From the NCBI GenBank assembly GCA_016189835.1, contig JACPRU010000040.1, positions 1,230 through 65,229 on the forward strand: a stretch of 64,000 bases of DNA. The letters are read 5' to 3'. Made by a program: the position numbers and the translations under genes. Shown in pieces: positions 20,440 through 64,000 of this stretch (positions are counted from its first letter, which is position 1; each line of letters starts with the position of its first letter). The notes below the pieces were generated by a model. The model was not told the DNA's origin. It made no database searches and saw nothing but the letters and a program-made list of their open reading frames with translations. Origin of the DNA: Deltaproteobacteria bacterium (GTDB lineage Bacteria > Desulfobacterota > Binatia > JACPRU01).

Positions 20440-21165
20440 TCACCCGAGCAAGTCGAGCAGGTCGGGGATGCGGCGAATGACGTGCCGCGGCCGGTCGCCG
20501 TCGGTCGGCGGCGGGCGGTCCTCGCGGTGCCAGATCAGTACCGAGCGCAGCCCGACCCGGTTCGCGCCGGCGATGTCCTGCGGCAACGAGTCGCCGACGA
20601 ACAGCGCCTCGTGCGGCTCGCACCCGGCGCGGCGCAGGGCCTCGGCGAAGATGCGGGAGTCGGGCTTGCACGACCCGGCTTCCTCGCTCGACAGCAGCCA
20701 GTCGAAGTGACGGTCGAGCTCCGCCAGCGTGCCGAGGTGAGCGAGCTGATCGCGATCGATGTTGCTGACCACGCCGAGGCGAAGCCCGCGCCGGCGCAGC
20801 TCAGCGAGCGTCTCGCGAGCGCCTTCGCGCAGCCGGAAGTCGCGCCGGTGGAGCCGCCACTGCATCTCTCGGTAGCGGTCGAGATGCTCGGGGTCGGCCG
20901 GGCAACCGAGCTCGTGGAGCATGCCGATGGCGGCCTCGCGGAACATGTCGCGATGCAGGAAGAAGCTCCGGGTGAGGTGGCAGCGAAAGGTCCGGCGCAA
21001 CGCCACGCGGTACGCGCGATGAACGGTCTCGACGTCGGCTTTCGCGCCGGCCAGCTCGGCGAGCAGCGTCAGGCTCTCGCGGTCGCCGGGCAGCAGCGAG
21101 TCGTAGGCGTAGAGCGTGCCGCCGAAATCGAAGAGAACGGCGCGCACCGGCGCCTTCCGATTCAT
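20440..21165 (-). CDS. HAD superfamily hydrolase (subfamily IA-like)
   Basis: Motif I is VLFDFGGTLY (haloacid-dehalogenase-like DxxGT form). Also VVSNIDRD and FVGDSLPQDIAGANRVG. Confidence 0.75.
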   Translation of the reverse strand: MNRKAPVRAVLFDFGGTLYAYDSLLPGDRESLTLLAELAGAKADVETVHRAYRVALRRTFRCHLTRSFFLHRDMFREAAIGMLHELGCPADPEHLDRYREMQWRLHRRDFRLREGARETLAELRRRGLRLGVVSNIDRDQLAHLGTLAELDRHFDWLLSSEEAGSCKPDSRIFAEALRRAGCEPHEALFVGDSLPQDIAGANRVGLRSVLIWHREDRPPPTDGDRPRHVIRRIPDLLDLLG

Positions 21166-21348
21166 GCGCCGGCTCCGTGACGGGCCGGCGCGTTGCCGGG
21201 CTTGCGGTCCATGACCGGATTGTCTCCGCTTCGCGGCGCGCTCTCAATCCCCCCTCTCGGAGCATCGCGGCGCCGACGTCGGGCCCGGGTCTCCCGACGT
21301 TCGGCCGTTCCTTTCGCTGGGTCGAGCACTCCTCTATGTAGAGCGGCC

Positions 21349-47082: not shown

Positions 47083-47691
47083 TCACGATCCCGCTTTCGA
47101 TTCCTCGAGCACGCGGCGCGAGCGCCAGAAGACCTCGTCGAGCCCGAGCGGGTCGGCGCCGTAGCCGCCGCGCAGGCCGCCCGCGGCATCGACCAGAAAG
47201 ATCTCGCCGCCGGGCGCCGCGTCGAGACCCGCGCTCCGTCCGGCCGCGGCGGCGGCGGGCTCGATCCGGAATCCGTGCTCGGCGAGCTCGCGCACCTGCT
47301 CGCGCGGCCCGTGCAGCAGCACCCAGCGCCGGGGATCGAGGCCGTGGGTCTTCGCGGCTTCGCGCGCGCGCGCCGCCGCGCCGTCTTCGCGATCGGCGCT
47401 GATGCTCACCAGGCGAATCGAGTCGAGCCCCTCGTCGCGATAGCGGCGGGCGAGGCTCGACATCGCCTGCAGCCGGGCGGGCGTCGCGGCGAAGCTCGCC
47501 ACGTAGACGTGTCCGCGCAGCTCGTCGCTGCCGTAGCGCTCGCCGCTCGCCGTCATCAGCGAGAACTCCGGCACCTGCCCGATCACCGGCGGCGGGTCGG
47601 GGATCCGGCGCAAGAGCGGCCGCATCAGCGTGATCACCGCGCACCCCACGACGAACGCCCACAGGAAGGGGTTGCGCAGCCCGCGGCTCAT
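47083..47691 (-). CDS. SCO1/SenC-like thioredoxin-fold protein lacking the CxxxC copper site
   Basis: 202 aa with an N-terminal TM. VPEFSLMTASGERYGSDELRGHVYVASFAATPARLQ aligns by eye with the SCO motif F(G/T)xTxCPDVCP, but both Cys are replaced. ISADRED and WVLLHGPREQV match the SCO blocks ISVDPERD and WxxLTG. Confidence 0.55.
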   Translation of the reverse strand: MSRGLRNPFLWAFVVGCAVITLMRPLLRRIPDPPPVIGQVPEFSLMTASGERYGSDELRGHVYVASFAATPARLQAMSSLARRYRDEGLDSIRLVSISADREDGAAARAREAAKTHGLDPRRWVLLHGPREQVRELAEHGFRIEPAAAAAGRSAGLDAAPGGEIFLVDAAGGLRGGYGADPLGLDEVFWRSRRVLEESKAGS

Positions 47692-47957
47692 CGTGGGATC
47701 AGCTTCTCGAGGATCGCGGCGAACTTGTGCTGGCGGAGGTTCTGGCGGGCGTTCAGCAGGATCAGCAGGACGATGACGGCGCGGGGCGCGAGCGCGAAGC
47801 CGGGATCGCGCAGCCGCTCGTAGCCGTAGACGGCGGCGAGCGCCAGCGCCACCGCGATGCTCGCGTTCGAGAGGCTCGAGAACAGACGCTTGCGGCGAAT
47901 CGCCCGCCCGGCGAAGGCGCGTTCGGCCTCGGTGAGTGGCTCGTCTCGTTCGCTCAT
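47688..47957 (-). CDS. Small membrane protein (2 TM), first gene of the hemH operon
   Basis: 89 aa from ATG 47957. ATGA overlap with the downstream SCO-like gene. Confidence 0.4.
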   Translation of the reverse strand: MSERDEPLTEAERAFAGRAIRRKRLFSSLSNASIAVALALAAVYGYERLRDPGFALAPRAVIVLLILLNARQNLRQHKFAAILEKLIPR

Positions 47958-48190
47958 CGGAACGGGACTCTTGTGACAGACTCCCTCCGTGAATTCCAGG
48001 CGGCGAGCGCGGGGGGACACTTGACGTTTTCCTCCGCGCTGCGATAAGCACGCCGGCGAAAAATTCCGGGATCCTTCCGCTGACGCGGTTTCAGGGACGA
48101 GGGGGAAAAACGACGGGTCGAGGCTAGCGAGCCGCCCTCGAGGCGGTCTCACTACGCGGTTCGGCAATCGCGGTCGTCGGGTGCAGGCTG

Positions 48191-48838
48191 GTGGCACAGA
48201 TCTTTTCCGAACGAATCAATCGACTTCCCCTGTTCCTCGGCGTCGGGGCGCCCCTCGGCTTGGTCGGCGCGATCGCGTTCGTGTGGTACTTCTTCTCCCC
48301 CTGGTACACGGACGTCGGTTACCAGCCGACGCAGCCCGTCCCGTACAGCCACCGCCTGCATGCGGGCGACATGGAGATCAACTGCCGCTACTGTCATGCG
48401 ATGGCGGAGATCTCGCCGGCGGCCGGCGTGCCGCCCACTCAGTCGTGCATGAACTGTCACACCCTGGCGATGAAGGACAGCCCGCGGCTGCAGCCGATTC
48501 GCGACAGCGCGGCGGATGGCCTTCCCATGCGCTGGGTGCGCGTGCACGAGCTGGCCGACTACGTCTACTTCGAGCACGCCTCGCACGTACGGGCGGGCGT
48601 GGGCTGCGTGTCGTGTCACGGCCGCATCGACCAGATGGACGTCGTGCGCGAGGAGAAGCCGCTCAGCATGAGCTGGTGCCTCGACTGTCACCGCGACCCC
48701 GCTCCGAATCTCCGGCCCGTGGATCAGGTGACGAACATGCGCTGGGTCCCGCCGCCGAATCATCCCGAGTGGGCGCTACGGACGATCCAGGAGCGCGGCA
48801 TCCAGCCGCCGGTCGACTGCTCGGGGTGCCATCGGTGA
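48191..48838 (+). CDS. actA: Alternative Complex III-type pentahaem cytochrome c (ActA)
   Basis: GTG start and an N-terminal TM. Five CxxCH motifs (CRYCH, CMNCH, CVSCH, CLDCH, CSGCH). QPVPYSHRLHAG...INCRYCH is typical of ActA. Confidence 0.85.
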   Translation: MAQIFSERINRLPLFLGVGAPLGLVGAIAFVWYFFSPWYTDVGYQPTQPVPYSHRLHAGDMEINCRYCHAMAEISPAAGVPPTQSCMNCHTLAMKDSPRLQPIRDSAADGLPMRWVRVHELADYVYFEHASHVRAGVGCVSCHGRIDQMDVVREEKPLSMSWCLDCHRDPAPNLRPVDQVTNMRWVPPPNHPEWALRTIQERGIQPPVDCSGCHR

Positions 48839-48929
48839 GCCAAGACTCCGCGACCCGGCGGCCGGCGAAGGGCGAGGAGCGGCCCCGGGACGGTGTTCCC
48901 GAGCGGCCGGAGCGCTCGCGGGGACGCGA

Positions 48930-51862
<2,933 letters not shown>

Positions 51863-51866
<4 letters not shown>

Positions 51867-52558
51867 AGGGGCACGCGAAGAAGGCGGCGCAAGAGGCTGC
51901 GGGGGGAACGGGTTTGCTTGGGACGGACTCGTCGCCGTCCACGGCGCAAACCCGTTCCCCCCGCAGCCGTGTCACCGGGCATCTGCTGATCGTAGTCCTC
52001 GGCGCCGTGCTCGCCGTCACCACGCTGGAGGGCTGCATGCGCGGCTGCGGCTCCTCGCGGCCGCCGATCCACCCGAACTACAGCATGTTCAACCAGCCGA
52101 AGTACCGCCCCTATGGCGCCAGCGCGTTCTTCTACGACGGAGCGGCGATGCGCCGGCCGGTGCCGGGCACCGTGGCCCGCGGCCACCTCGTCGAGGATCC
52201 GGTACTCGAGAGCGGCAAGAGCGCCGACGGCTCGCCGGTCGCCTCCTCGCCCGTGGCGGTGGACGAGGCGCTCGTCGACCGCGGCCGCGACCGCTACGGC
52301 ATCTATTGCCAGCCCTGCCACGACGAGCGCGGCGAGGGCAAAGGCATTCTCTTCCAGCGCGCCAAGGTGCCGACCGCGAACCTGCTCGACAAGCGCATCC
52401 GCGACCTGCCCGACGGCAGCCTGTTCGACACCATCACCAACGGCAAGGGGCTGATGGCGGGCTACCGCTATCCGATCCGCGCGCGCGACCGCTGGGCGAT
52501 CATCGCCTACGTGCGGAGCCTGGAGAAGGCGCAGGCGCAGAGGGAGGCCGCGCGGTGA
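51863..52558 (+). CDS. actE: ActE-like lipoprotein monohaem cytochrome c
   Basis: GTG 51863 overlaps the actB stop. Signal/lipobox-like LIVVLGAVLAVTTLEGC. MFNQPKYRPYGASAFFYDGAAMRRPVPGTVARG, CQPCH and RDRWAIIAYVRSLE match ActE. The first 35 codons are a palindromic element, so the start is uncertain. Confidence 0.7.
51895..51968. repeat. Perfect 23-bp inverted repeat with nested 6-bp inner hairpin
   Basis: GGCTGCGGGGGGAACGGGTTTGC (51895..51917) and its exact reverse complement (51946..51968). The 28-nt spacer contains GGACGG/CCGTCC (51921..51940). Confidence 0.9.
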
Positions 52559-54426
52559 ACCGTCGAGCGCTCCTCGGCATCGTCGGCGCGTTCCTGCTGC
52601 TCACCGCGGTGCTGCGCGTGTGGGTGGCGGTCAACGATCGGGCCTACCGGGCGCCGGTCTACTCCACCCAGGTGCAGCCGGTGCCGCGCGAGCAGGGCAT
52701 CGCCGATCAGCAGAAAGCGGCCGAAGCCAAGGCCAAGGCCAAGAAATACGAGGCGCCGACGTACCGTCAGTTTCCGTTCGTCGGCAGCCGCGTGGCGATC
52801 TGGGTGGTCGCCGAGCTGCACCTGATGTTCGCCGCCTTCGTGCTCGCCGTACCGATGTTCGCGTTCATCATCGAGGTGATCGGCTACGCGACCGGCGACA
52901 AGCGCTACGACCGGCTGGCCTTCGAGTTCACCAAGCTGCTCTCGACCTCGTTCTCGTTCACGGCGAGCTTCGGCGGCTTTCTGACCTTCATGCTGATCGC
53001 GCTCTACCCGGCGTTCACGAACTACCTGATGGAGGTCTTCTCGCCGACGTTCCTGCCCTACGTGCTGCTGTTCTTCGCCGAGGCGGGCTGCCTCTACAGC
53101 TACTACTACGGCTGGGGCAAGTTTCATCCGCTCGTCCACCTCGCGCTCGGCCTGGCGATCAACGTGGTCGGCACCCTGATCATGTTCATCGCCAACGCCT
53201 GGGCCTCGTTCATGATGACGCCGCAAGGCATCTCCGACTCCGGGGCGCTCGTCGATCTCTACGCCGCGTTCGACAACTTCACGTGGATGCCGATCAACAT
53301 CCACCGCTTCATCGGCAACATCGCCTTCGGCGGATCGGTGGCCGCGGCGTACGCGGCGTGGAAGTTCCTGCACGCCGAGACCGACGAGCAGCGCGCCCAC
53401 TACGACTGGATGGGCTACGTCGGCAACTTCGTCGCGATCAGCGCGTTCCTGCCGCTGCCGTTCGCCGGCTACTACCTCGCCGCGGAGATCTACGCCTACA
53501 ACCAGGCACTCGGCATCATGATGATGGGCGGCGCGTTCTCCTGGCTGTTCATCATCCAGGCCGTCTTGATCGGCAACCTGTTCCTCGCCGCCAACTACTA
53601 CCTGTGGCTCGGCATGGGCCGGGTCGAGGGTGTGCAGGCCTACCAGAAGTACGTCAAGTACCTGCTGGCGGCGATCGCCGTGTGCTTCGCGGTGTGGGCG
53701 ACGCCGCACTCGCTCATCGCCACCACCGCCGAGATCCGCGCGATGGGCGGAACGCTGCATCCGATGCTCGGCTACCTCGGCGTGATGTCGGCGAAGAACA
53801 CCGCGGTGAACGTGCTGATCCTCACCACGTACGTGAGCTTTCTCTTCTATCGCCGCACCGGAAAGCGGCCGACGGTGTCTTGGGCGAAGCTCGGCAACCT
53901 CGTGCAGTTCCTGATCTTCGCGGCCTCCACCGCGATCGTGATCTTCTACGGCATCTACGGCTACTTCGTGGAGGCGGCGGTGCGCATCGCCTTCTCGGTG
54001 CCGCAGGTGCTGTCGGTGCTGGTGGCGATGGTATTGATGACGGTGATCGACATCTTCCTCATGCGCGGCGCCCACGCCACGGGCGAGACCCACTGGGGCA
54101 AGATCCCGGCGGTCTCGCAGTACGTGCTGATCTTCATCGCCGTGACGTTCACCTGGCTCATGGGGCTGATGGGCTACGTCCGATCGGGCCTCCGCCAGCA
54201 CTGGCACGTGTACGGCGTGCTGGTGGATTCTTCGCCCGATGCCTTCACGCCCACGCTGGGATTCGCGGCCAACGTCGTCTCGGTCTGCGTGATCCTGTTC
54301 TTCGCGCTCATCGCGTTCGTGTTCTGGCTCGCCAGCCTGCACGACAAGAGGGATTGGGGGACGACGCAATCCGACGAGCCGGCCCACGGCGGGCACGCGC
54401 CGAAGAGGGTGTCGGCGGGCTCATGA
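52555..54426 (+). CDS. Cytochrome bd subunit I (CydA)-like polytopic membrane protein, no CydB partner
   Basis: 623 aa, GTGA overlap with actE. By eye it aligns to E. coli CydA at AELHLMFAAFVLAVPMF (H19 region), FFAEAG (E99 region), IANAWASFMM, NIHRFIGNIAFGG...AAW (H186 region) and GLRQHW (GRQPW region). It has a much shorter Q-loop and extra C-terminal TM helices. Confidence 0.6.
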   Translation: MNRRALLGIVGAFLLLTAVLRVWVAVNDRAYRAPVYSTQVQPVPREQGIADQQKAAEAKAKAKKYEAPTYRQFPFVGSRVAIWVVAELHLMFAAFVLAVPMFAFIIEVIGYATGDKRYDRLAFEFTKLLSTSFSFTASFGGFLTFMLIALYPAFTNYLMEVFSPTFLPYVLLFFAEAGCLYSYYYGWGKFHPLVHLALGLAINVVGTLIMFIANAWASFMMTPQGISDSGALVDLYAAFDNFTWMPINIHRFIGNIAFGGSVAAAYAAWKFLHAETDEQRAHYDWMGYVGNFVAISAFLPLPFAGYYLAAEIYAYNQALGIMMMGGAFSWLFIIQAVLIGNLFLAANYYLWLGMGRVEGVQAYQKYVKYLLAAIAVCFAVWATPHSLIATTAEIRAMGGTLHPMLGYLGVMSAKNTAVNVLILTTYVSFLFYRRTGKRPTVSWAKLGNLVQFLIFAASTAIVIFYGIYGYFVEAAVRIAFSVPQVLSVLVAMVLMTVIDIFLMRGAHATGETHWGKIPAVSQYVLIFIAVTFTWLMGLMGYVRSGLRQHWHVYGVLVDSSPDAFTPTLGFAANVVSVCVILFFALIAFVFWLASLHDKRDWGTTQSDEPAHGGHAPKRVSAGS

Positions 54427-54917
54427 GATCTCCGGTCGGCGTCAACGTGGTCCTGGTGGTGGCGGGCGCGACGCTCTTCTACACCTACGTCGGCCAGCTC
54501 GTGCCGCAGAAGGAGCTGCAGCCGCCGCCGAAGGTCGAGATCACCCAGGAGATGACGCCGGTACAGCTCGCCAAGGTCGGCGACGAGCTCGCGCGCGGCA
54601 AGGGCATGTGCCTCACCTGCCACACGGTCGGGCACAGCGGCGGGCCGCTCCGCTATCCCGACCTCGCCGGCGTGGCCGAGCGGGCCAAGACGCGCGTCGC
54701 GGGGCTCGATCAGCTGCACTACTTCGCGCAGTCGGTCTGCCAGCCGGACGCGTTCGTCGTCGCCGGCTTCGCGCCGGGCATGCCGGCCATCCACAGGCCG
54801 CCGATCGGGCTCTCCGACGAGGAGCTGCACGCGGTGGTCGCGTGGCTCCAGAGCCAGGGGGGGCAGGCGACGATCACCTTGAAGGAGAAGCTGCCGTACT
54901 GCGGAGGCCCCGGGTGA
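54423..54917 (+). CDS. Membrane-anchored monohaem cytochrome c
   Basis: 164 aa with an N-terminal TM and one CxxCH (CLTCH). ATGA overlap with the upstream gene. Confidence 0.7.
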   Translation: MRSPVGVNVVLVVAGATLFYTYVGQLVPQKELQPPPKVEITQEMTPVQLAKVGDELARGKGMCLTCHTVGHSGGPLRYPDLAGVAERAKTRVAGLDQLHYFAQSVCQPDAFVVAGFAPGMPAIHRPPIGLSDEELHAVVAWLQSQGGQATITLKEKLPYCGGPG

Positions 54918-54930
54918 GCGGAGACCGCGC

Positions 54931-55758
54931 ATGAAGCTCGCGATCGTCCTTGCCGTCGTCGCCGTGATGGTCGTGCTGCGCCTGGTGCGCGCCGGGCTGC
55001 TCGTGTGGCTCGCCGCCTGGTGGGTCGGCACGTACGCGGTGCTGCGCTACGGCTTCGTGACGCCGATTCCCGCTTCCGCCCTGCACATCTTCATGGCGAT
55101 CACGGCGCTCTCGCTGTTCGCCTACGCGACGTCGAGCCGCGAGCGGATGCGCGCGACCTACGAGCCGGTCCTCGCGTTCGCGAGCGAGAGCCGCTTCACG
55201 CTGCCGCTCGCGCTGGTGGCCGCGTCGATTCCCGGGGTCGTCGCCTGGAGCGTCTACCAGGGCCTGCAGCAGCCGCTCCAGCCGCCTTACTTCGGGCGCA
55301 CGGTCCACCCGTCGCCGCCCGCCGAGATCACGTCGCGCGGCGAGAAGGTCGATCTCGCGCGCGCCGCCAACCCCTTCCGCAATCTCGAGAAGACGGACGT
55401 CCAGGCGTTTCGCCGGCACGTCGAGAACGGCCGGCGGGTTTACTACCGCAACTGCTTCTTCTGTCACGGCGACGACCTCGGCGGCGCCGGGATGTACGCC
55501 CACGGCCTCGACCCGGTGCCCGCGAACTTCCTCGACTCGGGCGTGCTGCCGATGTTCCAGGAGTCGTTCTTCTTCTGGCGCATCGCCAAGGGCGGCCCGG
55601 GCATGCCCGACGAGGGCGCCCCCGGCGACTCGGCGATGCCCGAGTGGGAGCGCATGCTCAGCAACGAAGAGATGTGGGACGTGATCCTGTTCCTCTACGA
55701 CGACGCGGGCTACCGGCCGCGGGCGCTCGAGGCAGTCGGCGCCGAGGTGGCTCACTAG
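54931..55758 (+). CDS. Polytopic (about 4 TM) membrane protein with C-terminal monohaem cytochrome c domain
   Basis: 275 aa with one CxxCH (CFFCH), followed by MPEWERMLSNEEMWDVILFL, typical of class I cytochromes c. Confidence 0.7.
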   Translation: MKLAIVLAVVAVMVVLRLVRAGLLVWLAAWWVGTYAVLRYGFVTPIPASALHIFMAITALSLFAYATSSRERMRATYEPVLAFASESRFTLPLALVAASIPGVVAWSVYQGLQQPLQPPYFGRTVHPSPPAEITSRGEKVDLARAANPFRNLEKTDVQAFRRHVENGRRVYYRNCFFCHGDDLGGAGMYAHGLDPVPANFLDSGVLPMFQESFFFWRIAKGGPGMPDEGAPGDSAMPEWERMLSNEEMWDVILFLYDDAGYRPRALEAVGAEVAH

Positions 55759-57456
55759 ATGCCTCCGATTTCGCGACGCCACGAGGCCTCCTCCTGGGTG
55801 ACGCTCGCCCTGGCCCTGGCGGCGCTGCCGTGCTTCGCCGCGCCCGCGCCCGACCTCGGCACGGATCAGCAACGACAGGCGGGAAAGCCGCTCTACGACC
55901 GGCACTGTTCGCAGTGCCACGGCGAAAAGGGGGACGGCCTCGGCGTGGCGGCGCCGTTCCTCAGCCCCAAGCCCCGCGACTTCACCTCCGGCAAGTTCAA
56001 GATCCGCACCACGCCGAGCGGCGCACTGCCCACCACGCAGGATCTCAAGGCCATCATCCGCGCCGGGATGCCCTACACCGCGATGCCGGGCTGGCCGCAG
56101 TTCAACGACCGGCAGCTCACCGACGTCGCGTACTACGTGAAGTCGTTCGCCGCGGACTTCGCCGACCCCGATCGCCAGCCCGAGCCGATCCAGAGCCCGC
56201 CGGTGCCGGCCATCAGCGGCGAATCGATCGGCAGAGGCAAGAAGCTCTACGAGGAGCTCGGCTGCGCACGCTGCCACGGCGAGACGGGCCGCAGCGACGG
56301 CGTCGCGGCGCCGACGCTGACCGACGACTGGGGATACCTGATCCGCTCCGCCGACCTCACTCGGCGCTGGACGTTCCGCGGCGGCCCGACGCGCCAGGAA
56401 ATCTTCCGTGCATTCTCGACCGGCCTGAACGGTACGCCCATGCCTTCGTTCGTCGACGCGCTGACGGTCGAGCAGCGCTGGGATCTCGCCGACTTCGTCT
56501 ACTCGCTGTCGCCGAGGGACTCGCCGGAGTACGCGACGCTGCTCGTCGCCAAGAAGGTCGCACGCGAGCTGGACCTGGCCGAAGGGGCGAAGCTCTTCGA
56601 GGAAGCCGAGCCCGCCTACTTCCCGGTGATCGGCCAGATCATGCAGCCGGGGCGCGCGTTTCACCCGTCGTGCAACGGCATCGCCGTGCGCGCCGTCTAC
56701 AACGAGACCGACATCGCCTTCGAGCTGCGCTGGAACGACATGCGGGCGGAGGTCACGGGCAAGAACGGACCCGAGCTGGCGGTGGCGGCGGCCGAGGACG
56801 AGGGCGACGAGCCCGCCGCGGCGCCGCCGGCCGCTGAAGGTGGCGGCGGGTGGGGCGACGCGGAAGCCGCCGCGCCGGCGGCCGAGCCCGCCGCGGCGCC
56901 GGCCGACGTTTGGGGAGAAGGCGAAGCCGGCGCCGCGGCGTCTGCGGCCGTACCGCAGAGCGAATTCTCCGACGCCGTGGCCATCCAGTTCCCGGCCGAG
57001 AAGTCGCTGACGATCCGCAAGCCCTACTTCGTCTTCGGCGACAAGGGCAACGCCGTCAACCTCTGGTTCGTCGACCTCGCGAAGCCGGAGCCGGCGCTGT
57101 ACGTCGGCCGGGGCAGCGACTCCCTGGAGCCGCTCGGGCCCCGCGATCTGACGGTCACCCGCGGCTACGACAAGGGCGAATGGACCGTCGTCTTCAAGCG
57201 GCGGCTGCGCAGCCAGGGAGAGGTCACGTTCGAGGAGCAGGGCTTCCTGCCGATCGCCTTCTCGGTGTGGGACGGCCTCGCCGGCGAGCGGGGCAACAAG
57301 CGCGGCCTCACCAACTGGTGGACCGTCTATCTCTCGCCCGACGAGAAGCCGTCGCTCGTCCGCGAGATGGCGAAGTGGGGGGGGCTGGCGTTCGCGCTCG
57401 AAGTGGTGTTCATCGGCTGGGCACGCCGCCGCGCGCACAACTCGGCGGGATCCTGA
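55759..57456 (+). CDS. Dihaem cytochrome c fused to EB_dh-like (type II DMSO-reductase gamma-subunit-like) haem-b domain, C-terminal TM anchor
   Basis: 565 aa with a signal peptide and two CxxCH (CSQCH, CARCH). The C-terminal about 270 aa (AVRAVYNETDIAFELRWND...DAVAIQFP...NLWFVD...GEWTVVFKRRL...IAFSVWDG) resemble the ethylbenzene-dehydrogenase gamma/NxrC-type domain from memory. Terminal TM is GGLAFALEVVFIGW. Confidence 0.55.
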   Translation: MPPISRRHEASSWVTLALALAALPCFAAPAPDLGTDQQRQAGKPLYDRHCSQCHGEKGDGLGVAAPFLSPKPRDFTSGKFKIRTTPSGALPTTQDLKAIIRAGMPYTAMPGWPQFNDRQLTDVAYYVKSFAADFADPDRQPEPIQSPPVPAISGESIGRGKKLYEELGCARCHGETGRSDGVAAPTLTDDWGYLIRSADLTRRWTFRGGPTRQEIFRAFSTGLNGTPMPSFVDALTVEQRWDLADFVYSLSPRDSPEYATLLVAKKVARELDLAEGAKLFEEAEPAYFPVIGQIMQPGRAFHPSCNGIAVRAVYNETDIAFELRWNDMRAEVTGKNGPELAVAAAEDEGDEPAAAPPAAEGGGGWGDAEAAAPAAEPAAAPADVWGEGEAGAAASAAVPQSEFSDAVAIQFPAEKSLTIRKPYFVFGDKGNAVNLWFVDLAKPEPALYVGRGSDSLEPLGPRDLTVTRGYDKGEWTVVFKRRLRSQGEVTFEEQGFLPIAFSVWDGLAGERGNKRGLTNWWTVYLSPDEKPSLVREMAKWGGLAFALEVVFIGWARRRAHNSAGS

Positions 57457-57469
57457 CCGGGAGGCAGCG

Positions 57470-59494
57470 ATGTACAAGACCATCTACGTTCCGGTGGACA
57501 ACTCCGACTTCTCCAATCAGGCCGTTCGCCTGGCCATCGATCTCGGCAAGAGCTTCGGCTCGAAGATGGTGGGCTGCCACGTCTACGCGGCCAAGATGCA
57601 CGACTACCGCTTCAAGCAGATGGAGTACACGCTGCCCGCGGAGTACCTCGAGGAGACCGAGCTCGAGCGGCAGCGGAAGATCCACGACAGCCTGATCACC
57701 ATGGGCTTGAAGCTCATTTCCGACAGCTATCTCGCGTCGATGGAGCAGCAGTGCGGGGCGGCCGGCCTCGAGTTCGAGCCGCGCATGACGGACGGCAAGC
57801 ACTCGACCGAGATCGTCAAGGACCTCGCCGCGGGCGGTTACGACCTGGTCGTGCTCGGCGTGCTCGGCCTCGGCCGCGTGCGCGACAGTCAGGTGGGATC
57901 GGTTTGCGAGCGCGTGGTGCGTCACGCCAGGCAGGACGTGCTCGTGGTCAAGCAGTTGCCGAACGGGGACGGCGCCGCGCGCGACACGATCCTGGTCGGC
58001 ATCGACGGCAGCCCGCAGTCCTTCGGGGCGCTCTTGACGGCGACCGACCTCGCCAAGCGCTTCGGCAAGAAGGTCGAGGCGATCGCCGTCTACGATCCCT
58101 ACCTCCACTACACCGTGTTCAACGGCATCGTGAACGTGCTCAGCGAGAAGGCGGCCAAGGTCTTCCGCTTCGAGGAGCAGAACCAGCTGCATGAGGAGGT
58201 GATCGACACCGGGCTCGCGCAGATCTACCAGTCGCACCTCGAGGTGGCCGCGAAGATGGCGGTCGAGACCGGCTTCGAGATCCAGAAGACGCTGCTCGAC
58301 GGCAAGGCATTCCAGAAGGTGTTGAACCACGCCCGCAAGATCGATCCCTGGCTGCTGGTGGTCGGCCGCACGGGGATTCACGGCGTGAAGGACGAGACCG
58401 AGCTCGGCAGCAACGCGGAGAACCTGTTCCGCAGCTGCCCGTGCGACCTGCTGCTCACCACCCGGCTCGAGGTCCCCGAGCTCGACGTCAAGGCCGAGGA
58501 GTCGATCCGCTGGACGGCTGAGGCCGAGGAGCGCATGACCCGCGTGCCGCCGCTCGTGCAGGGGATCGCGCGCACCGCGATCTACCGCCTGGCGATCGAG
58601 AGGGGCCACAGCGTGATCACCAGCAGCCTGCTCGACGAGGCGATGGAGCGGTACATGCCGAAGGGCGCGAAGGCGACGACGCGGCTGGCCGAGAGCGTCG
58701 TGCTCGAGCACGCGAAGGACCGGGCGGTGTCGATCTGCAAGAAGTGCGGCGTGTCGGCGGCCGAGGCGAGCCCCGTCGCGTGCGCGGTCTGCGGCGGCGA
58801 CGCCTTCCACGTGATCTCGCCGGGAATGGTCGAGGAGATCATCGAGAGCGAGGGCGGAGCGCAGGCCGAGACCACCTACGACGGCCGCACGCTCACCTGG
58901 ACGCGCGAGGCCAAGCGGGCGTTGTGGACGATTCAGGACGGCTACCAGCGCCGTCGCACCAAGGCGCGGGTCGAGAAGGCGGCGCGTCTGAGGCGGTTCG
59001 AGGCCGTGAGCCTGGAGCTGGCCCGGGCGCTGATCGAGGAGGAGACCGGCGAGCCGCTGGTGCTGCCGCCGCGAGGCGCCGAGGCGCCCCCGCCGCCGGC
59101 CGAGACGCAGGACGGCAAGAAGCTCGTTGCCCGTGACGAGAAGCGCAACCCCTTGTTCTCCGCGCTCGACTGGCAGCCGGACGCGGTCATGCGGATCCTG
59201 CGCGTGCCGGCCGGGTTCATGCGCAACCGCACGCAGCAGAGGATCGAGGACCTGGCACGTGAGCGCGGCGCCGACGCGATCGACCTCGCGCTCGTCGAGG
59301 AGGGCATCGAGCAGGGCCGCCAGCTCATGGAAGAGATGATCCAGGAGTACAAGGCGAATCCGCAGGCCGCGCGCGCGACGACGACTCGCCCCGAACCGCC
59401 GCCGTCCGCCGCGGCTCCCGCTTCCGACGGTTTGCCGCTGAACGAGGTCGGCGTCATGGCGGTCATGGAAGCGAGGCGGGCCGGTAAGGCCTGA
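57470..59494 (+). CDS. Tandem universal stress protein (UspA x2) fused to zinc ribbon and three PCP_red-like domains
   Basis: 674 aa. Usp motifs (IYVPVDNS...GSVCERVVRHARQDVLVV; ILVGIDGS...LGSNAENLFRSCPCDLLL). CKKCG...CAVCG. Three W(T/Q)xEAxxxLxRVPxFV...ERG...-type domains at about 58505..58657, 58892..59041 and 59165..59329. Confidence 0.6.
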   Translation: MYKTIYVPVDNSDFSNQAVRLAIDLGKSFGSKMVGCHVYAAKMHDYRFKQMEYTLPAEYLEETELERQRKIHDSLITMGLKLISDSYLASMEQQCGAAGLEFEPRMTDGKHSTEIVKDLAAGGYDLVVLGVLGLGRVRDSQVGSVCERVVRHARQDVLVVKQLPNGDGAARDTILVGIDGSPQSFGALLTATDLAKRFGKKVEAIAVYDPYLHYTVFNGIVNVLSEKAAKVFRFEEQNQLHEEVIDTGLAQIYQSHLEVAAKMAVETGFEIQKTLLDGKAFQKVLNHARKIDPWLLVVGRTGIHGVKDETELGSNAENLFRSCPCDLLLTTRLEVPELDVKAEESIRWTAEAEERMTRVPPLVQGIARTAIYRLAIERGHSVITSSLLDEAMERYMPKGAKATTRLAESVVLEHAKDRAVSICKKCGVSAAEASPVACAVCGGDAFHVISPGMVEEIIESEGGAQAETTYDGRTLTWTREAKRALWTIQDGYQRRRTKARVEKAARLRRFEAVSLELARALIEEETGEPLVLPPRGAEAPPPPAETQDGKKLVARDEKRNPLFSALDWQPDAVMRILRVPAGFMRNRTQQRIEDLARERGADAIDLALVEEGIEQGRQLMEEMIQEYKANPQAARATTTRPEPPPSAAAPASDGLPLNEVGVMAVMEARRAGKA

Positions 59495-59586
59495 GAGCGG
59501 AGCGCGTTGTCACCTCTGCGGACCGTGCGACGCGTCTTCCGCCGGCGGCGGACACCGAGGGGTCGCCGGAGGTAACGGGCGCCTGC

Positions 59587-60426
59587 ATGTCGGGCTATCG
59601 CTTCTGCCGCACGGACGACATCCCCGCTCTGGTCGACGCCTACAACGACTGCTGGCTGCCGCACTTCGCCCCGCAGGCCCCGCTGACCGTCGACGCCTTC
59701 AAGCGCGAGGTTCGCGAGATCCATCTGTGGGCGTCGAGCTGCATGCTGGCGACCGAGGACGACCGGTCGATCGGCGTGCTGCTCGGCGCCAAGCGCGACG
59801 ACGCCAACTTGGTGCGGGCGATCGCCCTGCGGCCTGGCCACGAGCGCCGCGGTCATGGCCGGCACCTGCTCGATTCGCTGCGCCGCAAGGTCGCAATCCT
59901 CGGACCGCGGCGGCTGCTCGTCGAAGTGCCGGCGGAGTGGGGGGGCGTGCGGCGCTTCTTCGAGCGGTGCGGCTTCCACGCCGAGGCCCGCTACGTGGAT
60001 TTCGCGCACGCGGCGCCGCGGCGCGCGCCGGTGGCTCCGGCGGCGCTGGTTTCGGCGATCACCCTCGAGGAGCTGCGCGAAGCCGGGGCGTTCGACCCGC
60101 CTCCGGGTTTGCCCTGGGAGCGGTCCCCGCAAACGCTCGTCAACCGCAGTCGACAGATAGAGGGCCTGGCGGTGGCTTCCGACGTGCGCATCGAGGCCTA
60201 CCTGCTCCATCGCCGCGTCGGGGCCGGCAACGAGCTGCTCGCCGTGGGCGGCCCGCGGGCCGAGCTCTTGCATCTGCTGCTCGCCGGACTCTATGAACGG
60301 ACGAGCGGCCCGATCACGTTTCCCAAGGTGAGCGAGCGGGAGACGGCTCACGCCGCTCTGCGGGACCTCGGGTTCGAGTCCGTGCGCGAGCACGTCGGGT
60401 ATGCGGCCGAGCTGAGCGAATCGTGA
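59587..60426 (+). CDS. GNAT-family acetyltransferase-like protein
   Basis: 279 aa. IALRPGHERRGHGRHLLDSL (acetyl-CoA-binding R/QxxGxG-like block) and FFERCGF. Confidence 0.5.
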   Translation: MSGYRFCRTDDIPALVDAYNDCWLPHFAPQAPLTVDAFKREVREIHLWASSCMLATEDDRSIGVLLGAKRDDANLVRAIALRPGHERRGHGRHLLDSLRRKVAILGPRRLLVEVPAEWGGVRRFFERCGFHAEARYVDFAHAAPRRAPVAPAALVSAITLEELREAGAFDPPPGLPWERSPQTLVNRSRQIEGLAVASDVRIEAYLLHRRVGAGNELLAVGGPRAELLHLLLAGLYERTSGPITFPKVSERETAHAALRDLGFESVREHVGYAAELSES

Positions 60427-61292
60427 AGAGCTACTTCGACATCGCCGGCGACGGCGGCTCGCGCGTTCTCGAGCAGGTCCGGGCCAAGCAGTCGCGCATC
60501 GCCGCGGCGCTCGCGGGCGTGCGGCGCATGGTGGCGGTCGGCTCCGGCAAGGGCGGCGTCGGCAAGAGCACGCTCACCCTGCAGCTCGCCCACGCGCTGC
60601 GCGAGGACGGCGCCTCGGTCGCGATCCTCGACGCCGACCTGAACGGTCCCAGCCAGGCGCGCATGACCGGGCTCGGCTCGGTGGCGCCGGTACCGGGGCC
60701 CGACGGGCTCGTCCTGCCGCGCACCGCCGCGGGCATCGGCGTGGTGTCGATGGGCCTCTTCGTCCCCGAGTCCGCGGCGCTCGACTTCGAGAGCGTCGCC
60801 GCCGGGGACAGCTACGTGTGGCGGGCGACCAAGGAGTTCGCGGTGCTCGGCGATCTGCTCGCCGGAGTCGCCTGGGGCCCGCTCGACTTCCTGCTCGTGG
60901 ACCTGCCGCCCGGGGCGGAGCGCACCGTGCAGTACGCCGAGTTCTTCGGCGCCGCCGCCGCGCTCGTGCTCGTCACCTTGCCCTCGGATCTCTCTCGCGG
61001 CGTGGTCGCGCGCTCGGTAGCGGGGCTCCGCCGGGCGCCGAATCGAGTGCTCGGTTACGTGGAGAACATGAAGGGCTACTGCTGCAGCGAGTGCGGCTCG
61101 GTCCGTCCGCTGTTCGCCGAGTCGTCCGCGATCGATCTCGGCATCCCCTGTCTCGGCGCGGTGCCGTTCGATCCCGCGCTCGCCGCCGCCTGCGACCGCG
61201 GCGAGCCGCTGCCCGCAGCGGCCGCCGGCCCGGCGTGGCCTGCGGTTCGTTCCGTGGCCGCGGCGATCCGCGGCGCACTGGAGGCGTCATGA
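60423..61292 (+). CDS. Mrp/NBP35/ApbC-family P-loop ATPase (Fe-S cluster carrier)
   Basis: GTG start overlapping the upstream stop. VGSGKGGVGKST, DADLNGPS, VENMKGYCCSECG. Confidence 0.85.
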   Translation: MKSYFDIAGDGGSRVLEQVRAKQSRIAAALAGVRRMVAVGSGKGGVGKSTLTLQLAHALREDGASVAILDADLNGPSQARMTGLGSVAPVPGPDGLVLPRTAAGIGVVSMGLFVPESAALDFESVAAGDSYVWRATKEFAVLGDLLAGVAWGPLDFLLVDLPPGAERTVQYAEFFGAAAALVLVTLPSDLSRGVVARSVAGLRRAPNRVLGYVENMKGYCCSECGSVRPLFAESSAIDLGIPCLGAVPFDPALAAACDRGEPLPAAAAGPAWPAVRSVAAAIRGALEAS

Positions 61293-61702
61293 AGTTTCTC
61301 TGCGTGCTGTGCGATCAGCCGATGAAGCTCGTCGAGGTCGCGCCGCCGGATCGCGGCGCGCTCAGCGTGCTCTACGAGTGCCCCGAGTGCGCGCACCGCA
61401 TCGCCATGCTCACCAACCCGTTCGAGACGCAGATGGTGACCTCGCTCGGCGTCGAGATCGGCCCGGGCGGCGAGAAGACCGAGTCGAAGTGCCCGTTCTC
61501 GGCGATGGTGCCGGGCGCGGGCGCGCCCGGCGCCGAGAGCGGCGTGACCTGGACCGCGAGCGCGCTCCGGCGCCTCGAGCGGATCCCCGAGTTCGTGCGG
61601 CCGATGGCGCGCGGCGGCATCGAGCGCTTCGCACGCGAGCGCGGCCTCAGCGAGGTCGACGAGGCGGTGCTCGACGAGGCGAAGAGCTTCTTCGGCATGT
61701 AG
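61289..61702 (+). CDS. Zinc-ribbon + PCP_red-like domain protein
   Basis: 137 aa, ATGA overlap. CVLCD...CPEC ribbon. The C-terminal VTWTASALRRLERIPEFVRPMARGGIERFARERGLSEVDEAVLDEAK strongly resembles the ChlB/BchB C-terminal (PCP_red) domain. Confidence 0.6.
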   Translation: MKFLCVLCDQPMKLVEVAPPDRGALSVLYECPECAHRIAMLTNPFETQMVTSLGVEIGPGGEKTESKCPFSAMVPGAGAPGAESGVTWTASALRRLERIPEFVRPMARGGIERFARERGLSEVDEAVLDEAKSFFGM

Positions 61703-63043
61703 GTGGAGACCCGGGATTCGCCGCCCGTCTTCCGATCGGGAACCGACGTGGACGCCTCCTTCGCACGACCGTACGTCATCTCCTGGAACCTGACGTATCG
61801 CTGCAACCTGGCCTGCGAGCACTGCTACCTCGACGCCGGCGGCAAGCCCGAGGTCGCCGCCCCCGCCTTCGCGGACCGCAGCGAGCTATCGACCGAGGAA
61901 TGCCTGCGCGTCGCCGACGAGATCGCCGCCTTCGCCCCGGACTGCCTGCTGATCCTGACGGGCGGGGAGCCGCTGCTGCGGCGCGACATCCTGGAGATCG
62001 TCCGCCACGCCGCGGCCCGGGGGCTGTGGGTGGTGGTGGGCACCAACGGCGTGAAGATCACCGAGAACCTCGCGGAGATCCTGCGCCGCGAGGGAGCCCG
62101 CGGCCTGTCGCTCTCGCTCGACGCGCTGGACCCGGAGCGGCACGACCGCTTCCGCCGCGTGCGCGGCGCGTGGCGCAACACCGTGGAGGGCGCCAAGATC
62201 CTCGCGCGCGCGGGCCTGCCGTTCATCGTGCAGACCACCGTCGCCCGCCACAACGTCGGCGAGCTCGCCGCCATCGCCGCGTTCGCCTGCGAAGAGCTCG
62301 CGGCGAGCGTGTGGAACCTCTTCTTCCTGGTTCCGACCGGCCGCGGGGCGCACGTCTCCGACCTCGACGCCGCCGCCTACGACGGCGTGCTCGCCGAGCT
62401 GCAACGGCTGCAGCGCCGCTTCGCCGGGCGCATGCTGGTCAACGCGAAGTGCGCGCCGCACTACGTCCGGCTGCTGCAGGGCGAAGCGGGGCAGGGGGCG
62501 GTGGTCAAGGGCTACGCCGGCGGCGCCGGCGGCTGTCCCGCGGGCACCCACTACCTCGGCATCCGTCCGAACGGCGACGTCACGCCGTGCCCCTACCTGC
62601 CGCTGTTCGGCGGAACGTTGAAGCGCTCGACCCTGCGCGAGATCTGGAGCGATTCGGATCCGTTCGTGCGCATCCGCGACCGCGCGCGGCTCGGCGGCCG
62701 CTGCGGCGCTTGCGAGCTGAACGCGGCCTGCGGCGGCTGTCGCGCACGCGCCTTCGGCATGACCGGCGACGTGCTCGCCGAGGACCCGCTGTGCACGCAT
62801 CAGCCCGGAACCTTCGGCCGGCCGGCGGCCCCGGACGTCGAGTACGGCGGGGCGGTCGAGACGACGCTGCCGTGGGACGCGGCGGCGCGCGAGCGCATGC
62901 AGCAGGTCCCCGCCTTCGTGCGCGGCATGGTCAGCCGCCGCGTCGAGGCCTACTGCCGCGAGCAGGGGCTGCCGCGCGTCACCGAGCAGGTGCTCGGCGA
63001 GATCCGCGCGCGCATGCCGACGCCGAAGCTGTTCGGCAGATGA
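61703..63043 (+). CDS. Radical SAM/SPASM enzyme (AhbD/NirJ-like haem-modifying type) with C-terminal PCP_red-like domain
   Basis: GTG start immediately after the upstream stop. CNLACEHC (CxxxCxxC), GGEPLL, SPASM Cys clusters (CPAGTHYLGIRPNGDVTPCPY; CGACELNAACGGCRARA). C-terminal LPWDAAARERMQQVPAFVRGMVSRRVEAYCREQGLPRV. Confidence 0.85.
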   Translation: METRDSPPVFRSGTDVDASFARPYVISWNLTYRCNLACEHCYLDAGGKPEVAAPAFADRSELSTEECLRVADEIAAFAPDCLLILTGGEPLLRRDILEIVRHAAARGLWVVVGTNGVKITENLAEILRREGARGLSLSLDALDPERHDRFRRVRGAWRNTVEGAKILARAGLPFIVQTTVARHNVGELAAIAAFACEELAASVWNLFFLVPTGRGAHVSDLDAAAYDGVLAELQRLQRRFAGRMLVNAKCAPHYVRLLQGEAGQGAVVKGYAGGAGGCPAGTHYLGIRPNGDVTPCPYLPLFGGTLKRSTLREIWSDSDPFVRIRDRARLGGRCGACELNAACGGCRARAFGMTGDVLAEDPLCTHQPGTFGRPAAPDVEYGGAVETTLPWDAAARERMQQVPAFVRGMVSRRVEAYCREQGLPRVTEQVLGEIRARMPTPKLFGR

Positions 63044-63059
63044 CGGGGCGCTCCCGCGA

Positions 63060-63662
63060 ATGGCGTCGCGCCTGATCCTCCCGGTTCACTACGACTTCTC
63101 GTCGACGATCTGCTTCGTCGCCCATCGCGTGCTCGAGCGCATGCACGACCAGCTCGAGGAGATGGGCGTCGAGCTGCGCTGGCGCCCGCTCGACCTGGTG
63201 GCGCTCAGCGGCTGGCGCCGCGGCGCAGAGGTCGCTGGCCCGCGGCGCGACAACGCGTTGCGCGTGGCGAGCGAGCTCGACGTCGCGGTGCGCATGCCGG
63301 CGGTGCTGCTCGATTCGCGGCGGGCGCACGCGGTGGCGCTCGCGCTCGCGGACGGACCGCGCGAGGCGGCGTGGCGGGAGCGCGTGTGGAGCGCGGTCTT
63401 CGAGGAGGGCCGTGACATCGGCGAGGAGGGAGAGATCGAGCGGCTCGCCGCCGATCTGACGATCGATCTTCGCGCCGTGGAAGGCGCGGGCGACCTCGCG
63501 CGCCTGGAAGCCGAGACCGATGCCGCGCGCGAGGCCGAGGTGACCGGCGTCCCCACCTTCCACGTCGGCTTCCCGCTCGGCGGCATCCAGGACCCGCACA
63601 CCATGAAGCTGCTGTTCCAGCGCTGGGTCGACCGGCAGCGCCGGGTGCGCTCGGGCGAGTGA
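63060..63662 (+). CDS. DsbA-like thioredoxin-fold protein (FrnE/HCCA-isomerase type) with SxxC in place of CxxC
   Basis: 200 aa. YDFSSTICFVAH at the active-site position and a C-terminal EAEVTGVPTFHVG typical of DSBA-like proteins. Confidence 0.55.
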   Translation: MASRLILPVHYDFSSTICFVAHRVLERMHDQLEEMGVELRWRPLDLVALSGWRRGAEVAGPRRDNALRVASELDVAVRMPAVLLDSRRAHAVALALADGPREAAWRERVWSAVFEEGRDIGEEGEIERLAADLTIDLRAVEGAGDLARLEAETDAAREAEVTGVPTFHVGFPLGGIQDPHTMKLLFQRWVDRQRRVRSGE

Positions 63663-63702
63663 ACCGCGCCGGCCGTCGACGCGACCGTCGCGGGCGGCGG
63701 CT

Positions 63703-64000
63703 TCAGCGAAGCGCGCGTTGCAGCGCCGGCCGCGCCTCGAGGCGGGCGAGGTAGGCGAGCAGGTTGGGGGTGCGCGCGTCGAGCACCTCGAACCGTCGCG
63801 CGATCAGCAGCGTCACGCCCATCATCACGTCGGCGGCGGAGAATTCGCCGCCGAGCAGGTAGTCCTTGCCCTCGAGCGAGCGCTCGGCGACGGCGAACGT
63901 CGCGGCGGCGCGGCCGCGGGCGTCCTCGACCACCGCGGCGATGCGCTCCGCCTCGGGCTTGAAGATCGTGTGGCGAACGATGTCGCCGAGCGGCGGCATC
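63703..64000 (-). CDS. Glutathione S-transferase, C-terminal part (N-terminus beyond window edge)
   Basis: KDYLLGGEFSAADVMMGVTL...LAYLARLEARPALQRA is typical of the GST C-terminal domain. Confidence 0.6.
   Translation of the reverse strand, partial: MPPLGDIVRHTIFKPEAERIAAVVEDARGRAAATFAVAERSLEGKDYLLGGEFSAADVMMGVTLLIARRFEVLDARTPNLLAYLARLEARPALQRALR

Follow-up and report, generated by a model that had tools for sequence, protein, structure and literature searches.

A radical SAM enzyme with a PCP_red tail as a candidate haem-directed accessory enzyme of a cytochrome bd-like respiratory complex

Among the radical S-adenosylmethionine (SAM) enzymes linked to haem, AhbD is described as carrying the auxiliary-cluster motif CX2CX5CX2CX17C (PMC10114771) and, according to a review, occurs in some coproporphyrin-pathway bacteria without the other Ahb enzymes (PMC13564367), NirJ and AhbC remove propionate or acetate side chains of didecarboxysirohaem (PMC10114771), and HemW, another member of the radical SAM family, supplies respiratory NarI with haem b (PMC10114771). 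On the respiratory side, OR-N bd-like oxygen reductases are described from Nitrospirota and Nitrospinota and have been proposed as the terminal oxidases of nitrite oxidisers (Murali, Gennis and Hemp). Here, we describe a gene at positions 61703-63043 of a 64,000-nucleotide stretch of contig JACPRU010000040.1 (the window), which encodes a radical SAM enzyme with a SPASM domain and a C-terminal PCP_red domain (PF08369). PCP_red belongs to dark-operative protochlorophyllide oxidoreductase (DPOR), an enzyme that acts on a tetrapyrrole together with a NifH/Mrp-like ATPase.

Sequence comparisons place the protein within the haem-type radical SAM group, and its gene travels with a small set of partners and with a respiratory gene cluster. 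With moderate confidence, we propose that it may be a haem-directed accessory enzyme for a respiratory complex built around a cytochrome bd-like protein and a cytochrome c-EB_dh fusion. In the source genome, it does not take the place of an absent ChdC. A literature search found no discussion of PCP_red function outside DPOR, full-text searches did not find PCP_red together with radical SAM, or a bd-like protein together with radical SAM and haem, and the papers on OR-N and OR-C bd-like enzymes name no accessory proteins of radical SAM or PCP_red type. The PCP_red fusion, the partner genes and their association with bd-like clusters seem not to have been described before.

Family placement of the radical SAM enzyme

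The gene and its domains lie as follows (domain spans approximate):
61703-63043, plus strand: radical SAM/SPASM/PCP_red enzyme, 446 residues (alternative start at 61748, 431 residues)
61787-62278, plus strand: Radical_SAM domain
62534-62713, plus strand: SPASM domain
62873-63001, plus strand: PCP_red domain

A preliminary description of this DNA had reported a radical SAM reading frame with a CxxxCxxC cluster, a SPASM domain and a PCP_red-like extension, and each of these is borne out by Pfam and by motifs: Radical_SAM (residues 29-192, E 1e-24) and SPASM (residues 278-337, E 2e-8) score above their gathering scores, and PCP_red (residues 391-433, E 9e-14) reaches 51.7 bits against a cut-off of 32.5. 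The CX3CX2C motif reads CNLACEHC (residues 34-41), and residues 334-364 read CGACELNAACGGCRARAF...DPLC, that is, CX2CX5CX2CX17C, which written as the AhbD-type auxiliary motif is CGACELNAACGGC-x17-C. In 31 homologues, C19, C23, C26 and the GGEP motif at G72-P75 (431-residue numbering) are invariant, as are all eight SPASM-region cysteines. As judged from these motifs, the protein is a catalytically intact AhbD-like enzyme with two full predicted auxiliary-cluster sites. Translation is possible from 61703, which abuts the upstream stop codon, or from 61748, which is preceded at 8 nt by a weak GGGA and is where the public gene call (P0001) begins, 15 codons further downstream, yielding 431 residues. 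Regional GC content is 70-74%, and because the G+C fraction at third codon positions (GC3) is 0.94 in the frame of the gene, the long antisense reading frames over it are read as artefacts of high-GC composition.

Ranked against NCBIfam, the protein scores best with AhbD (TIGR04545; 294.1 bits, or 294.9 in the genome scan, against a cut-off of 500), followed by NirJ2 (TIGR04055; 279 bits, also below a 500-bit cut-off) and by TIGR04053 (260.7 bits in two stretches, below 395), and it aligns over the full length of the AhbD and NirJ2 models. NirJ, AhbC and NirJ1 range from 136 to 153 bits (NirJ (TIGR04051) 153 against 515; AhbC 144 against 650), peptide maturases score low (PqqE 124 bits against a cut-off of 381; the mycofactocin maturase MftC 130 against 265), and HemN and HemW families are absent from the 25 best of the 71 NCBIfam families matched. 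An identity as MoaA, considered since MoaC comes after the gene in one Nitrospinota locus (L098), was rejected at only 72 bits; BchB/ChlB was likewise set aside, the protein having PCP_red alone, without the nitrogenase-like Oxidored_nitro domains.

The nearest relatives were drawn from an exhaustive search of 1.84 billion cluster representatives, and representatives outside the clade were typed as NirJ2 (P0208, 533 bits), as TIGR04053 (P0255, 453 bits) or by their scores to AhbD (P0218, P0236 and P0221, 456-497 bits). In an IQ-TREE phylogeny of the radical SAM/SPASM core only (78 rows, 363 columns, PCP_red columns excluded), the PCP_red-tailed proteins all fell into one separate 38-row clade with support 100/99, in an analysis whose bootstrap had not fully settled; PCP_red is detected in 35 of the 38 rows, and the remaining three look truncated or chimeric. 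In a quick tree of the same rows, the AhbD-scoring proteins and fusions of AhbD with siroheme decarboxylase split off by a branch with 100% support in the Shimodaira-Hasegawa-like approximate likelihood-ratio test, and the NirJ2 group of P0208 was among the nearest outside groups, yet separate. Fusions were seen in six sister-clade proteins (P0220, P0200, P0185, P0210, P0250 and P0267): five join an AhbD-like enzyme to siroheme decarboxylase (a NirDL-like helix-turn-helix plus AsnC_trans_reg2), and P0220 joins a TIGR04053-type radical SAM enzyme to ferrochelatase in one protein. These fusions mark the neighbouring clades firmly as enzymes of the haem pathway, so the wider group acts on iron tetrapyrroles, and the ferrochelatase fusion shows that this partnership with haem-pathway enzymes extends to relatives that do not belong to the siroheme route.

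Judged by these profiles and trees, the enzyme is a member of the haem-type radical SAM group, not of the peptide maturases, and of no characterised equivalog. The earlier assignment to an AhbD/NirJ-like class thus holds, AhbD and NirJ2 being the nearest families and peptide-maturase SPASM families scoring far lower, and no placement outside the haem-modifying radical SAM clade was recovered. The phylogeny proposed in the same description agrees in part: the protein lies inside the haem-type group, as anticipated, but outside AhbD and NirJ2 themselves, in a PCP_red clade of its own. With both of these it shares the radical SAM plus SPASM architecture and the identical spacing of the CX3CX2C and auxiliary motifs, whereas it scores far below 500 bits, sits in a separate clade, carries the extra PCP_red domain, comes from a genome without ahbA, ahbB or ahbC, and has a bd-like/cytochrome c cluster and PCP_red, Usp and Mrp proteins as its context instead of haem-pathway operons. 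TIGR04053 belongs to the same enzyme group, but lacks the PCP_red tail and falls in another clade, the protein scoring below its 395-bit cut-off. NirJ and AhbC share the superfamily branch that acts on iron tetrapyrroles and a SPASM-type auxiliary cluster, although at only 153 and 144 bits, and the genome search found no siroheme decarboxylase to provide their substrate. HemW is alike in concept, as a cytoplasmic radical SAM protein supplying haem to a membrane respiratory complex (NarGHI), but belongs to the HemN-like class without SPASM. The resemblance to AhbD is not new, since public annotations already carry it: the Joint Genome Institute labels some family members 'AdoMet-dependent heme synthase'.

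The tail sets the clade apart. PCP_red is absent from all sampled AhbD, NirJ2 and TIGR04053-type relatives, in line with the earlier remark that it is atypical of AhbD and NirJ. It is recognisably the same 45-residue domain as the C terminus of BchB/ChlB, matching PDB 2xdq_B residues 450-503, but here it is detached from the BchB/ChlB nitrogenase-like fold and found on radical SAM, Usp (three copies) and Zn-ribbon proteins; BchB models match the neighbouring PCP_red proteins only through their last 50-70 positions. The five PCP_red-like segments across these three cluster proteins share the signature W..A..R....P.F.R......E..A.E.G, with conserved arginines and aromatics and without a conserved His, Met or Cys able to ligate haem iron. 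An AlphaFold2 model of the radical SAM enzyme from the 31-sequence alignment has a mean pLDDT (predicted local distance difference test) of 67.8 and falls below 50 in the cluster loops and in the linker to PCP_red, so it gives no reliable position for PCP_red with respect to the active site.

A conserved module and its respiratory neighbours

Across 82 loci compared by tblastn (61-90% identical to the query, 10-kb flanks), drawn from Binatia and Acidobacteriota (Vicinamibacteria, Thermoanaerobaculia and Holophagales) with a few labelled Acidimicrobiia or otherwise, the gene has steady partners. A small Zn-ribbon-PCP_red gene adjoins it in 80 loci, an Mrp-type ATPase gene is present in 76 and a GNAT-family gene in 49, and a gene that combines universal stress protein (Usp) domains with PCP_red lies within 10 kb in 40. 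Genes for a membrane cytochrome c, the cytochrome c-EB_dh fusion and the bd-like protein were found in 30, 27 and 18 loci, respectively, the last two counts being limited by the 10-kb flank; in all 12 regions fetched further upstream, additional members of the c7/ActB-like/bd-like cluster appear, and 10 of these regions include the bd-like gene. An orthologue of the cytochrome c-EB_dh fusion occurs in all 22 genomes tested that carry the radical SAM gene, including those with a detached Mrp, PCP_red and radical SAM trio (in 21 genomes 47-58% identical along most of the protein, and 38% identical in G008). Among 26 relatives, the radical SAM orthologue and the bd-like gene are found in the same 6 and are both absent from the other 20.

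Stronger evidence for the link than this co-occurrence comes from distant homologues within the PCP_red clade (43-47% identical), where four of the lineages sampled again show the association with this respiratory cluster. One co-directional string (L099) runs Usp-PCP_red, radical SAM, bd-like, cytochrome c, cytochrome c-EB_dh and PCP_red; a second (L102) runs bd-like, cytochrome c-EB_dh, Usp-PCP_red and radical SAM, then a translationally coupled hemY; a third (L101) runs radical SAM, Usp-PCP_red, Mrp, PCP_red and bd-like and adjoins a caa3 operon with a CtaB-like UbiA-family gene; and a fourth, from another Binatia family that has ChdC (L095), has cytochrome c-EB_dh, Usp and radical SAM, with the adjacent Usp protein lacking a PCP_red match. 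Usp-PCP_red stands beside the radical SAM gene in each of L098 to L102, the pair lying next to other cytochromes in L098 and L100, and GNAT is absent from the distant versions. Haem-pathway genes also recur near the radical SAM gene: hemY in L102, hemY-hemH in the family of the source genome (f1), the CtaB-like gene in L101 and a ChdC-like paralogue in three loci. The second of two proposals in the preliminary description, a role for the bd-like protein, gains partial support from the strong synteny with the bd-like and cytochrome c-EB_dh genes, which reaches deep and recurs across lineages; the data do not show its other element, production of a modified or d-type haem. In L099, two CCP_MauG peroxidase-like genes and an arsenite-oxidase-like Rieske/molybdopterin pair (L099:816-6641) precede the string, which suggests that the bd-like module can couple to different electron donors.

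The neighbouring genes of the window are the following:
44603-47082, minus strand: hemY-hemH (hemY 44603-46084, hemH 46024-47082)
47083-48051, minus strand: SCO1/SenC-like protein, divergent from the c7/ActB-like/bd-like operon
48191-48838, plus strand: pentahaem cytochrome c7/QrcA-like protein, five CxxCH
48930-51866, plus strand: ActB/QrcBC-like Tat-exported molybdopterin-like plus 4Fe-4S subunit
52306-54426, plus strand: cytochrome bd subunit I-like membrane protein (PF01654, 76.6 bits, residues 161-397 against profile positions 2-239)
54423-54917, plus strand: small monohaem cytochrome c, 164 residues, with an ATG that overlaps the bd-like stop
54931-55758, plus strand: membrane-anchored monohaem cytochrome c, 275 residues
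55759-57456, plus strand: dihaem cytochrome c-EB_dh fusion (Pfam and NCBIfam; CxxCH at residues 50 and 169; N-terminal membrane anchor or signal)
57470-59494, plus strand: tandem-Usp protein (Usp 140 bits, PCP_red 77.6 bits; CxxC-x12-CxxC knuckle)
59587-60426, plus strand: GNAT-family acetyltransferase-like protein, 279 residues (Pfam Acetyltransf_7 and Acetyltransf_1)
60423-61292, plus strand: Mrp/ApbC/NBP35-type P-loop ATPase of the iron-sulfur cluster carrier type (PF10609, 179 bits; CxxC at residue 221)
61289-61702, plus strand: small PCP_red protein, 137 residues (N-terminal CxxC...CxxC at residues 5 and 31, Zn-ribbon or rubredoxin-like; PCP_red 60.9 bits)
63060-63662, plus strand: DsbA-like thioredoxin-fold protein downstream of the radical SAM gene, in some Binatia only (3 of the 82 loci)

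The GNAT, Mrp, PCP_red and radical SAM genes are translationally coupled through 4-nt overlaps or abutting codons, the Zn-ribbon-PCP_red frame overlapping the Mrp stop by 4 nt and abutting the radical SAM start; a promoter and terminator scan of 47000-64000 gave no more than chance. The Mrp-type protein scores 162 bits with MrpORP and 124 bits with ApbC, both below cut-off, and the Usp protein has three PCP_red-like segments, at residues 348, 477 and 568. The EB_dh domain is haem b-binding and resembles the gamma subunit of type II dimethyl sulfoxide reductases.

The bd-like protein has about 13 hydrophobic segments and no CxxCH, and matches the N-terminal half of CydA only; its true start is probably downstream of 52306. 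By sequence it is apparently of OR-N type, sharing with OR-N enzymes the N-terminal CydA helices only, the lack of a haem c motif, and c-type cytochromes and a module like alternative complex III (ACIII) nearby. In G006 (C14:232940-234965, on the contig of L009) and G003 (C20:61949-64067), the bd-like gene lies in several pieces, which reflect either long-read indel errors or decay of the oxidase gene; in G006 it has in-frame stops, and Mrp, PCP_red and radical SAM on the same contig are intact.

Other neighbours were also compared. The position of the SCO1/SenC-like gene is kept in Binatia and in five Thermoanaerobaculia genomes, a possible sign of a copper site within or close to the bd-like complex. 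The small cytochrome c gene at 54423-54917 is easily missed amid overlapping high-GC reading frames, and a 167-residue equivalent is called in L006. An ACIII-caa3 gene set is convergent downstream of the radical SAM gene in 41 of 84 loci. As a whole, the region is a respiratory island. In the source genome, an ACIII (NrfD/ActC-like and ActD) and haem-copper oxidase (COX1, COX2 and COX3) set lies about 10 kb downstream on the same strand (C14, approximately 74359-82600, some 9-17 kb past the window end) and is only 26-58% similar to the convergent set of most other loci.

The haem pathway of the source genome

The preliminary description had linked the enzyme to hemY-hemH, whose products could constitute two steps of a coproporphyrin-dependent branch, and had suggested that it supplies an oxygen-independent coprohaem decarboxylase in place of ChdC, which it found absent from the window. 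The observations behind this proposal stand: hemY (TIGR00562, 220.6 bits) and hemH (TIGR00109, 217.1 bits) are over their NCBIfam cut-offs, and ChdC (PF06778) was not found in the window or in the whole assembly, a 2.6-Mb metagenome-assembled genome of 87 contigs that is 75% complete and whose close relatives are labelled Candidatus Binatia. Incompleteness is an unlikely cause, because ChdC is missing from all 8 genomes of family f1, the source genome included, as opposed to being present in 18 of 18 from other Binatia families.

The linkage and the proposal built on it are not supported. Within 10 kb of the radical SAM gene, hemY occurs in none of the 82 loci and hemH in one, which is distant, and hemY-hemH adjoins the cluster only in three Binatia genomes, all of family f1. 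HemF is present in 6 of the 8 family f1 genomes versus 0 of 18 in the other families, and HemN in 2 of the 8. The source genome has both, HemF at C17:350-1228 (382 bits) and a bona fide HemN on another contig at C50:17103-18467 (566 bits against a cut-off of 325), as well as a separate HemW-like gene, so that a canonical complete pathway, one of the two grounds on which the preliminary description would have given up its proposal, is in place. The AhbA/B-type siroheme decarboxylase domain (PF17805) was over cut-off in 0 of 26 genomes, in a search that detected it in Haloferax, Sulfolobus and Methanosarcina as controls, and no AhbC-like paralogue was found in the source genome; in the AhbD search, a single genome among the 14 named controls scored at or above the cut-off, a count not broken down by genome. 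Because HemF and HemN are present and AhbA/B and AhbC-like proteins absent, HemY and HemH fit a complete protoporphyrin route: family f1 has switched to the protoporphyrin-dependent pathway (HemF/HemN, HemY and HemH) without a gap. The two genes are most likely a protoporphyrinogen oxidase and a protoporphyrin ferrochelatase that lie outside the conserved module, NCBIfam models not separating the CgoX/CpfC from the PgoX/PpfC types of HemY and HemH; hemH and hemY are not adjacent to chdC in the chdC neighbourhoods of eight other Binatia genomes.

Independence from pathway type appears in 25 other genomes that carry a radical SAM orthologue, two of them family f1 relatives already counted above. 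Full-length ChdC is present in 9; among the 16 without it, 13 carry HemF or HemN (HemF in 8, HemN in 6, one having both), and the last 3 show weak ChdC-like matches only. Genomes of either pathway type thus carry the orthologue, and in none of these 25 is it the sole candidate for the terminal decarboxylase step. AhbD-type chemistry could still apply to the PCP_red clade.

A second paralogue of the ChdC/HemQ family (124 bits to HemQ_actino, cut-off 235) lies in or beside the ACIII-caa3 set that adjoins the module in three Vicinamibacteria-type loci (L069:16165-16995, L062:19680-20471 and L087, approximately 20559-21344, all on the minus strand), with a ChdC-like copy just outside the fetched flank in several further genomes.

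Proposed role and alternatives

In the arrangement that we propose, a dedicated module of Usp-PCP_red, Zn-ribbon-PCP_red and the radical SAM-PCP_red enzyme, joined by Mrp and GNAT in the source lineage, would serve a respiratory complex of the bd-like (apparently OR-N-type) protein, c-type cytochromes and the cytochrome c-EB_dh fusion. The CX3CX2C cluster of the cytoplasmic radical SAM enzyme would cleave SAM to a 5'-deoxyadenosyl radical, which would abstract hydrogen from an iron tetrapyrrole, most likely at a propionate side chain; the two auxiliary SPASM clusters would carry the electron away, as proposed for AhbD. PCP_red domains may be docking or hand-over handles shared among the three proteins, or substrate lids, and Mrp would load or repair the iron-sulfur clusters. 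The product would be a haem for the bd-like complex, its synthesis or tailoring needing no oxygen. Judged by the nearest families and the AhbD motif, plain haem b made from coprohaem is the favoured prediction; a tailoring reaction better suits an enzyme that is independent of pathway type and strictly tied to the complex.

Several points weigh against this proposal. The scores lie below the AhbD, NirJ2 and TIGR04053 cut-offs, and the chemistry of the enzyme may therefore differ; nor did a PDB sequence search with it find an AhbD or NirJ structure. The co-occurrence in 6 of 26 relatives is weak alone, because it reflects one phylogenetic event with linked genes and not independent events. In L098 and L100, no bd-like gene was found within 10 kb, and in G027 the module lies approximately 570 kb from the cytochrome cluster. 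The client could be the caa3 oxidase of the respiratory island or respiratory haem proteins generally, and Mrp could equally serve the Fe-S-rich ActB-like subunit. The enzyme is cytoplasmic, while EB_dh, the c-type cytochromes and the haems of the bd-like protein lie on the periplasmic side, so that delivery would need further steps.

An unlikely variant is that the enzyme turns haem b or a precursor into a non-b haem (a chlorin, a d-type haem or one with altered side chains) specific to the bd-like/EB_dh complex. The strict association with the bd-like and cytochrome c-EB_dh genes and not with a haem pathway type would fit, as would a distinct clade so highly conserved across phyla (61-90% identical), its occurrence in protoporphyrin-route genomes, where coprohaem is not expected, the side-chain tailoring of iron tetrapyrroles by the related NirJ and AhbC, and the fact that the cofactors of OR-N enzymes are uncharacterised in the literature; however, simple decarboxylation of propionate to vinyl is what the AhbD-specific motif and the nearest families suggest. 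Escherichia coli makes haem d and is not known to have an AhbD/NirJ-type enzyme; because canonical bd oxidases obtain haem d without such an enzyme, haem d itself is an unlikely product. In its most specific form, by analogy to DPOR, the radical SAM enzyme, the two rubredoxin-like PCP_red proteins and Mrp would together be a new haem-tailoring machine making a non-b haem peculiar to OR-N-type oxidases, with PCP_red docking as in BchB-BchL, which we consider distinctly unlikely.

That the enzyme is instead a housekeeping oxygen-independent coprohaem decarboxylase, an AhbD isozyme finishing a HemY(CgoX)-HemH(CpfC) branch instead of ChdC, now seems improbable. AhbD is its best family match, with the auxiliary motif conserved, all 8 family genomes lack ChdC, a TIGR04053-type relative is fused to ferrochelatase, hemY directly follows the gene in L102, and AhbD is known in some coproporphyrin-pathway bacteria (PMC13564367). 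Yet HemF and HemN put family f1 cleanly on the protoporphyrin route, no source of coprohaem was recognised (AhbA/B in 0 of 26 genomes and no AhbC-like paralogue), the orthologue is independent of pathway type and never the sole candidate in 25 genomes, the hemY-hemH link does not extend beyond one family, and the protein scores 294 against 500 bits in a separate clade.

SPASM maturases that modify proteins, such as QhpD and anSME, suggest another function to which we give a low probability: a cross-link or other modification of a complex subunit or small peptide before export, with PCP_red as the docking element. The SPASM architecture is common to many peptide and protein maturases, small unannotated reading frames occur in several cluster versions, and the PCP_red copy number of one to three is like that of docking repeats. 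In a Foldseek search of the PDB, the model matched only generic SPASM/twitch radical SAM folds, the closest being SkfB, PqqE, SuiB and anSME, a result explained by the PDB holding no AhbD-type structures; neither these folds nor the PDB sequence search tell one candidate substrate from another. Against a maturase stand bit scores for haem enzymes two- to three-fold above those for any peptide maturase, the fusion of sister clades to haem-pathway enzymes and the lack of a conserved candidate precursor, none having been recognised beside the gene, although small reading frames were not searched systematically. A HemW-like chaperone function, in which the enzyme, together with its PCP_red partners, would take up haem and pass it to the membrane complex without net chemistry on the macrocycle, the iron-sulfur cluster serving for control, is very improbable: HemW offers a precedent, several PCP_red proteins could form a relay and the source genome encodes a full canonical route to haem b, but the catalytic features (CX3CX2C, GGEP and eight auxiliary cysteines) are all invariant, the enzyme is unrelated to the HemN/HemW class and PCP_red has no conserved haem-iron ligand.

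The proposed role as a haem-directed accessory enzyme bears on lineages beyond the source genome: bd-like genes related to OR-N occur in abundant soil lineages (Acidobacteriota and Binatia), and co-expression of the radical SAM module may be needed to obtain an active bd-like complex. PCP_red, so far known only from chlorophyll synthesis, gains a second context, and the AhbD enzyme group is widened to protoporphyrin-pathway bacteria, where coprohaem is not expected; 'AdoMet-dependent heme synthase' labels on this family are accordingly to be treated as unproven annotation. The product of the enzyme would show which haems the bd-like complex uses and, if the tailoring machine were true, it would define the cofactor set of the OR-N-type oxidase family.

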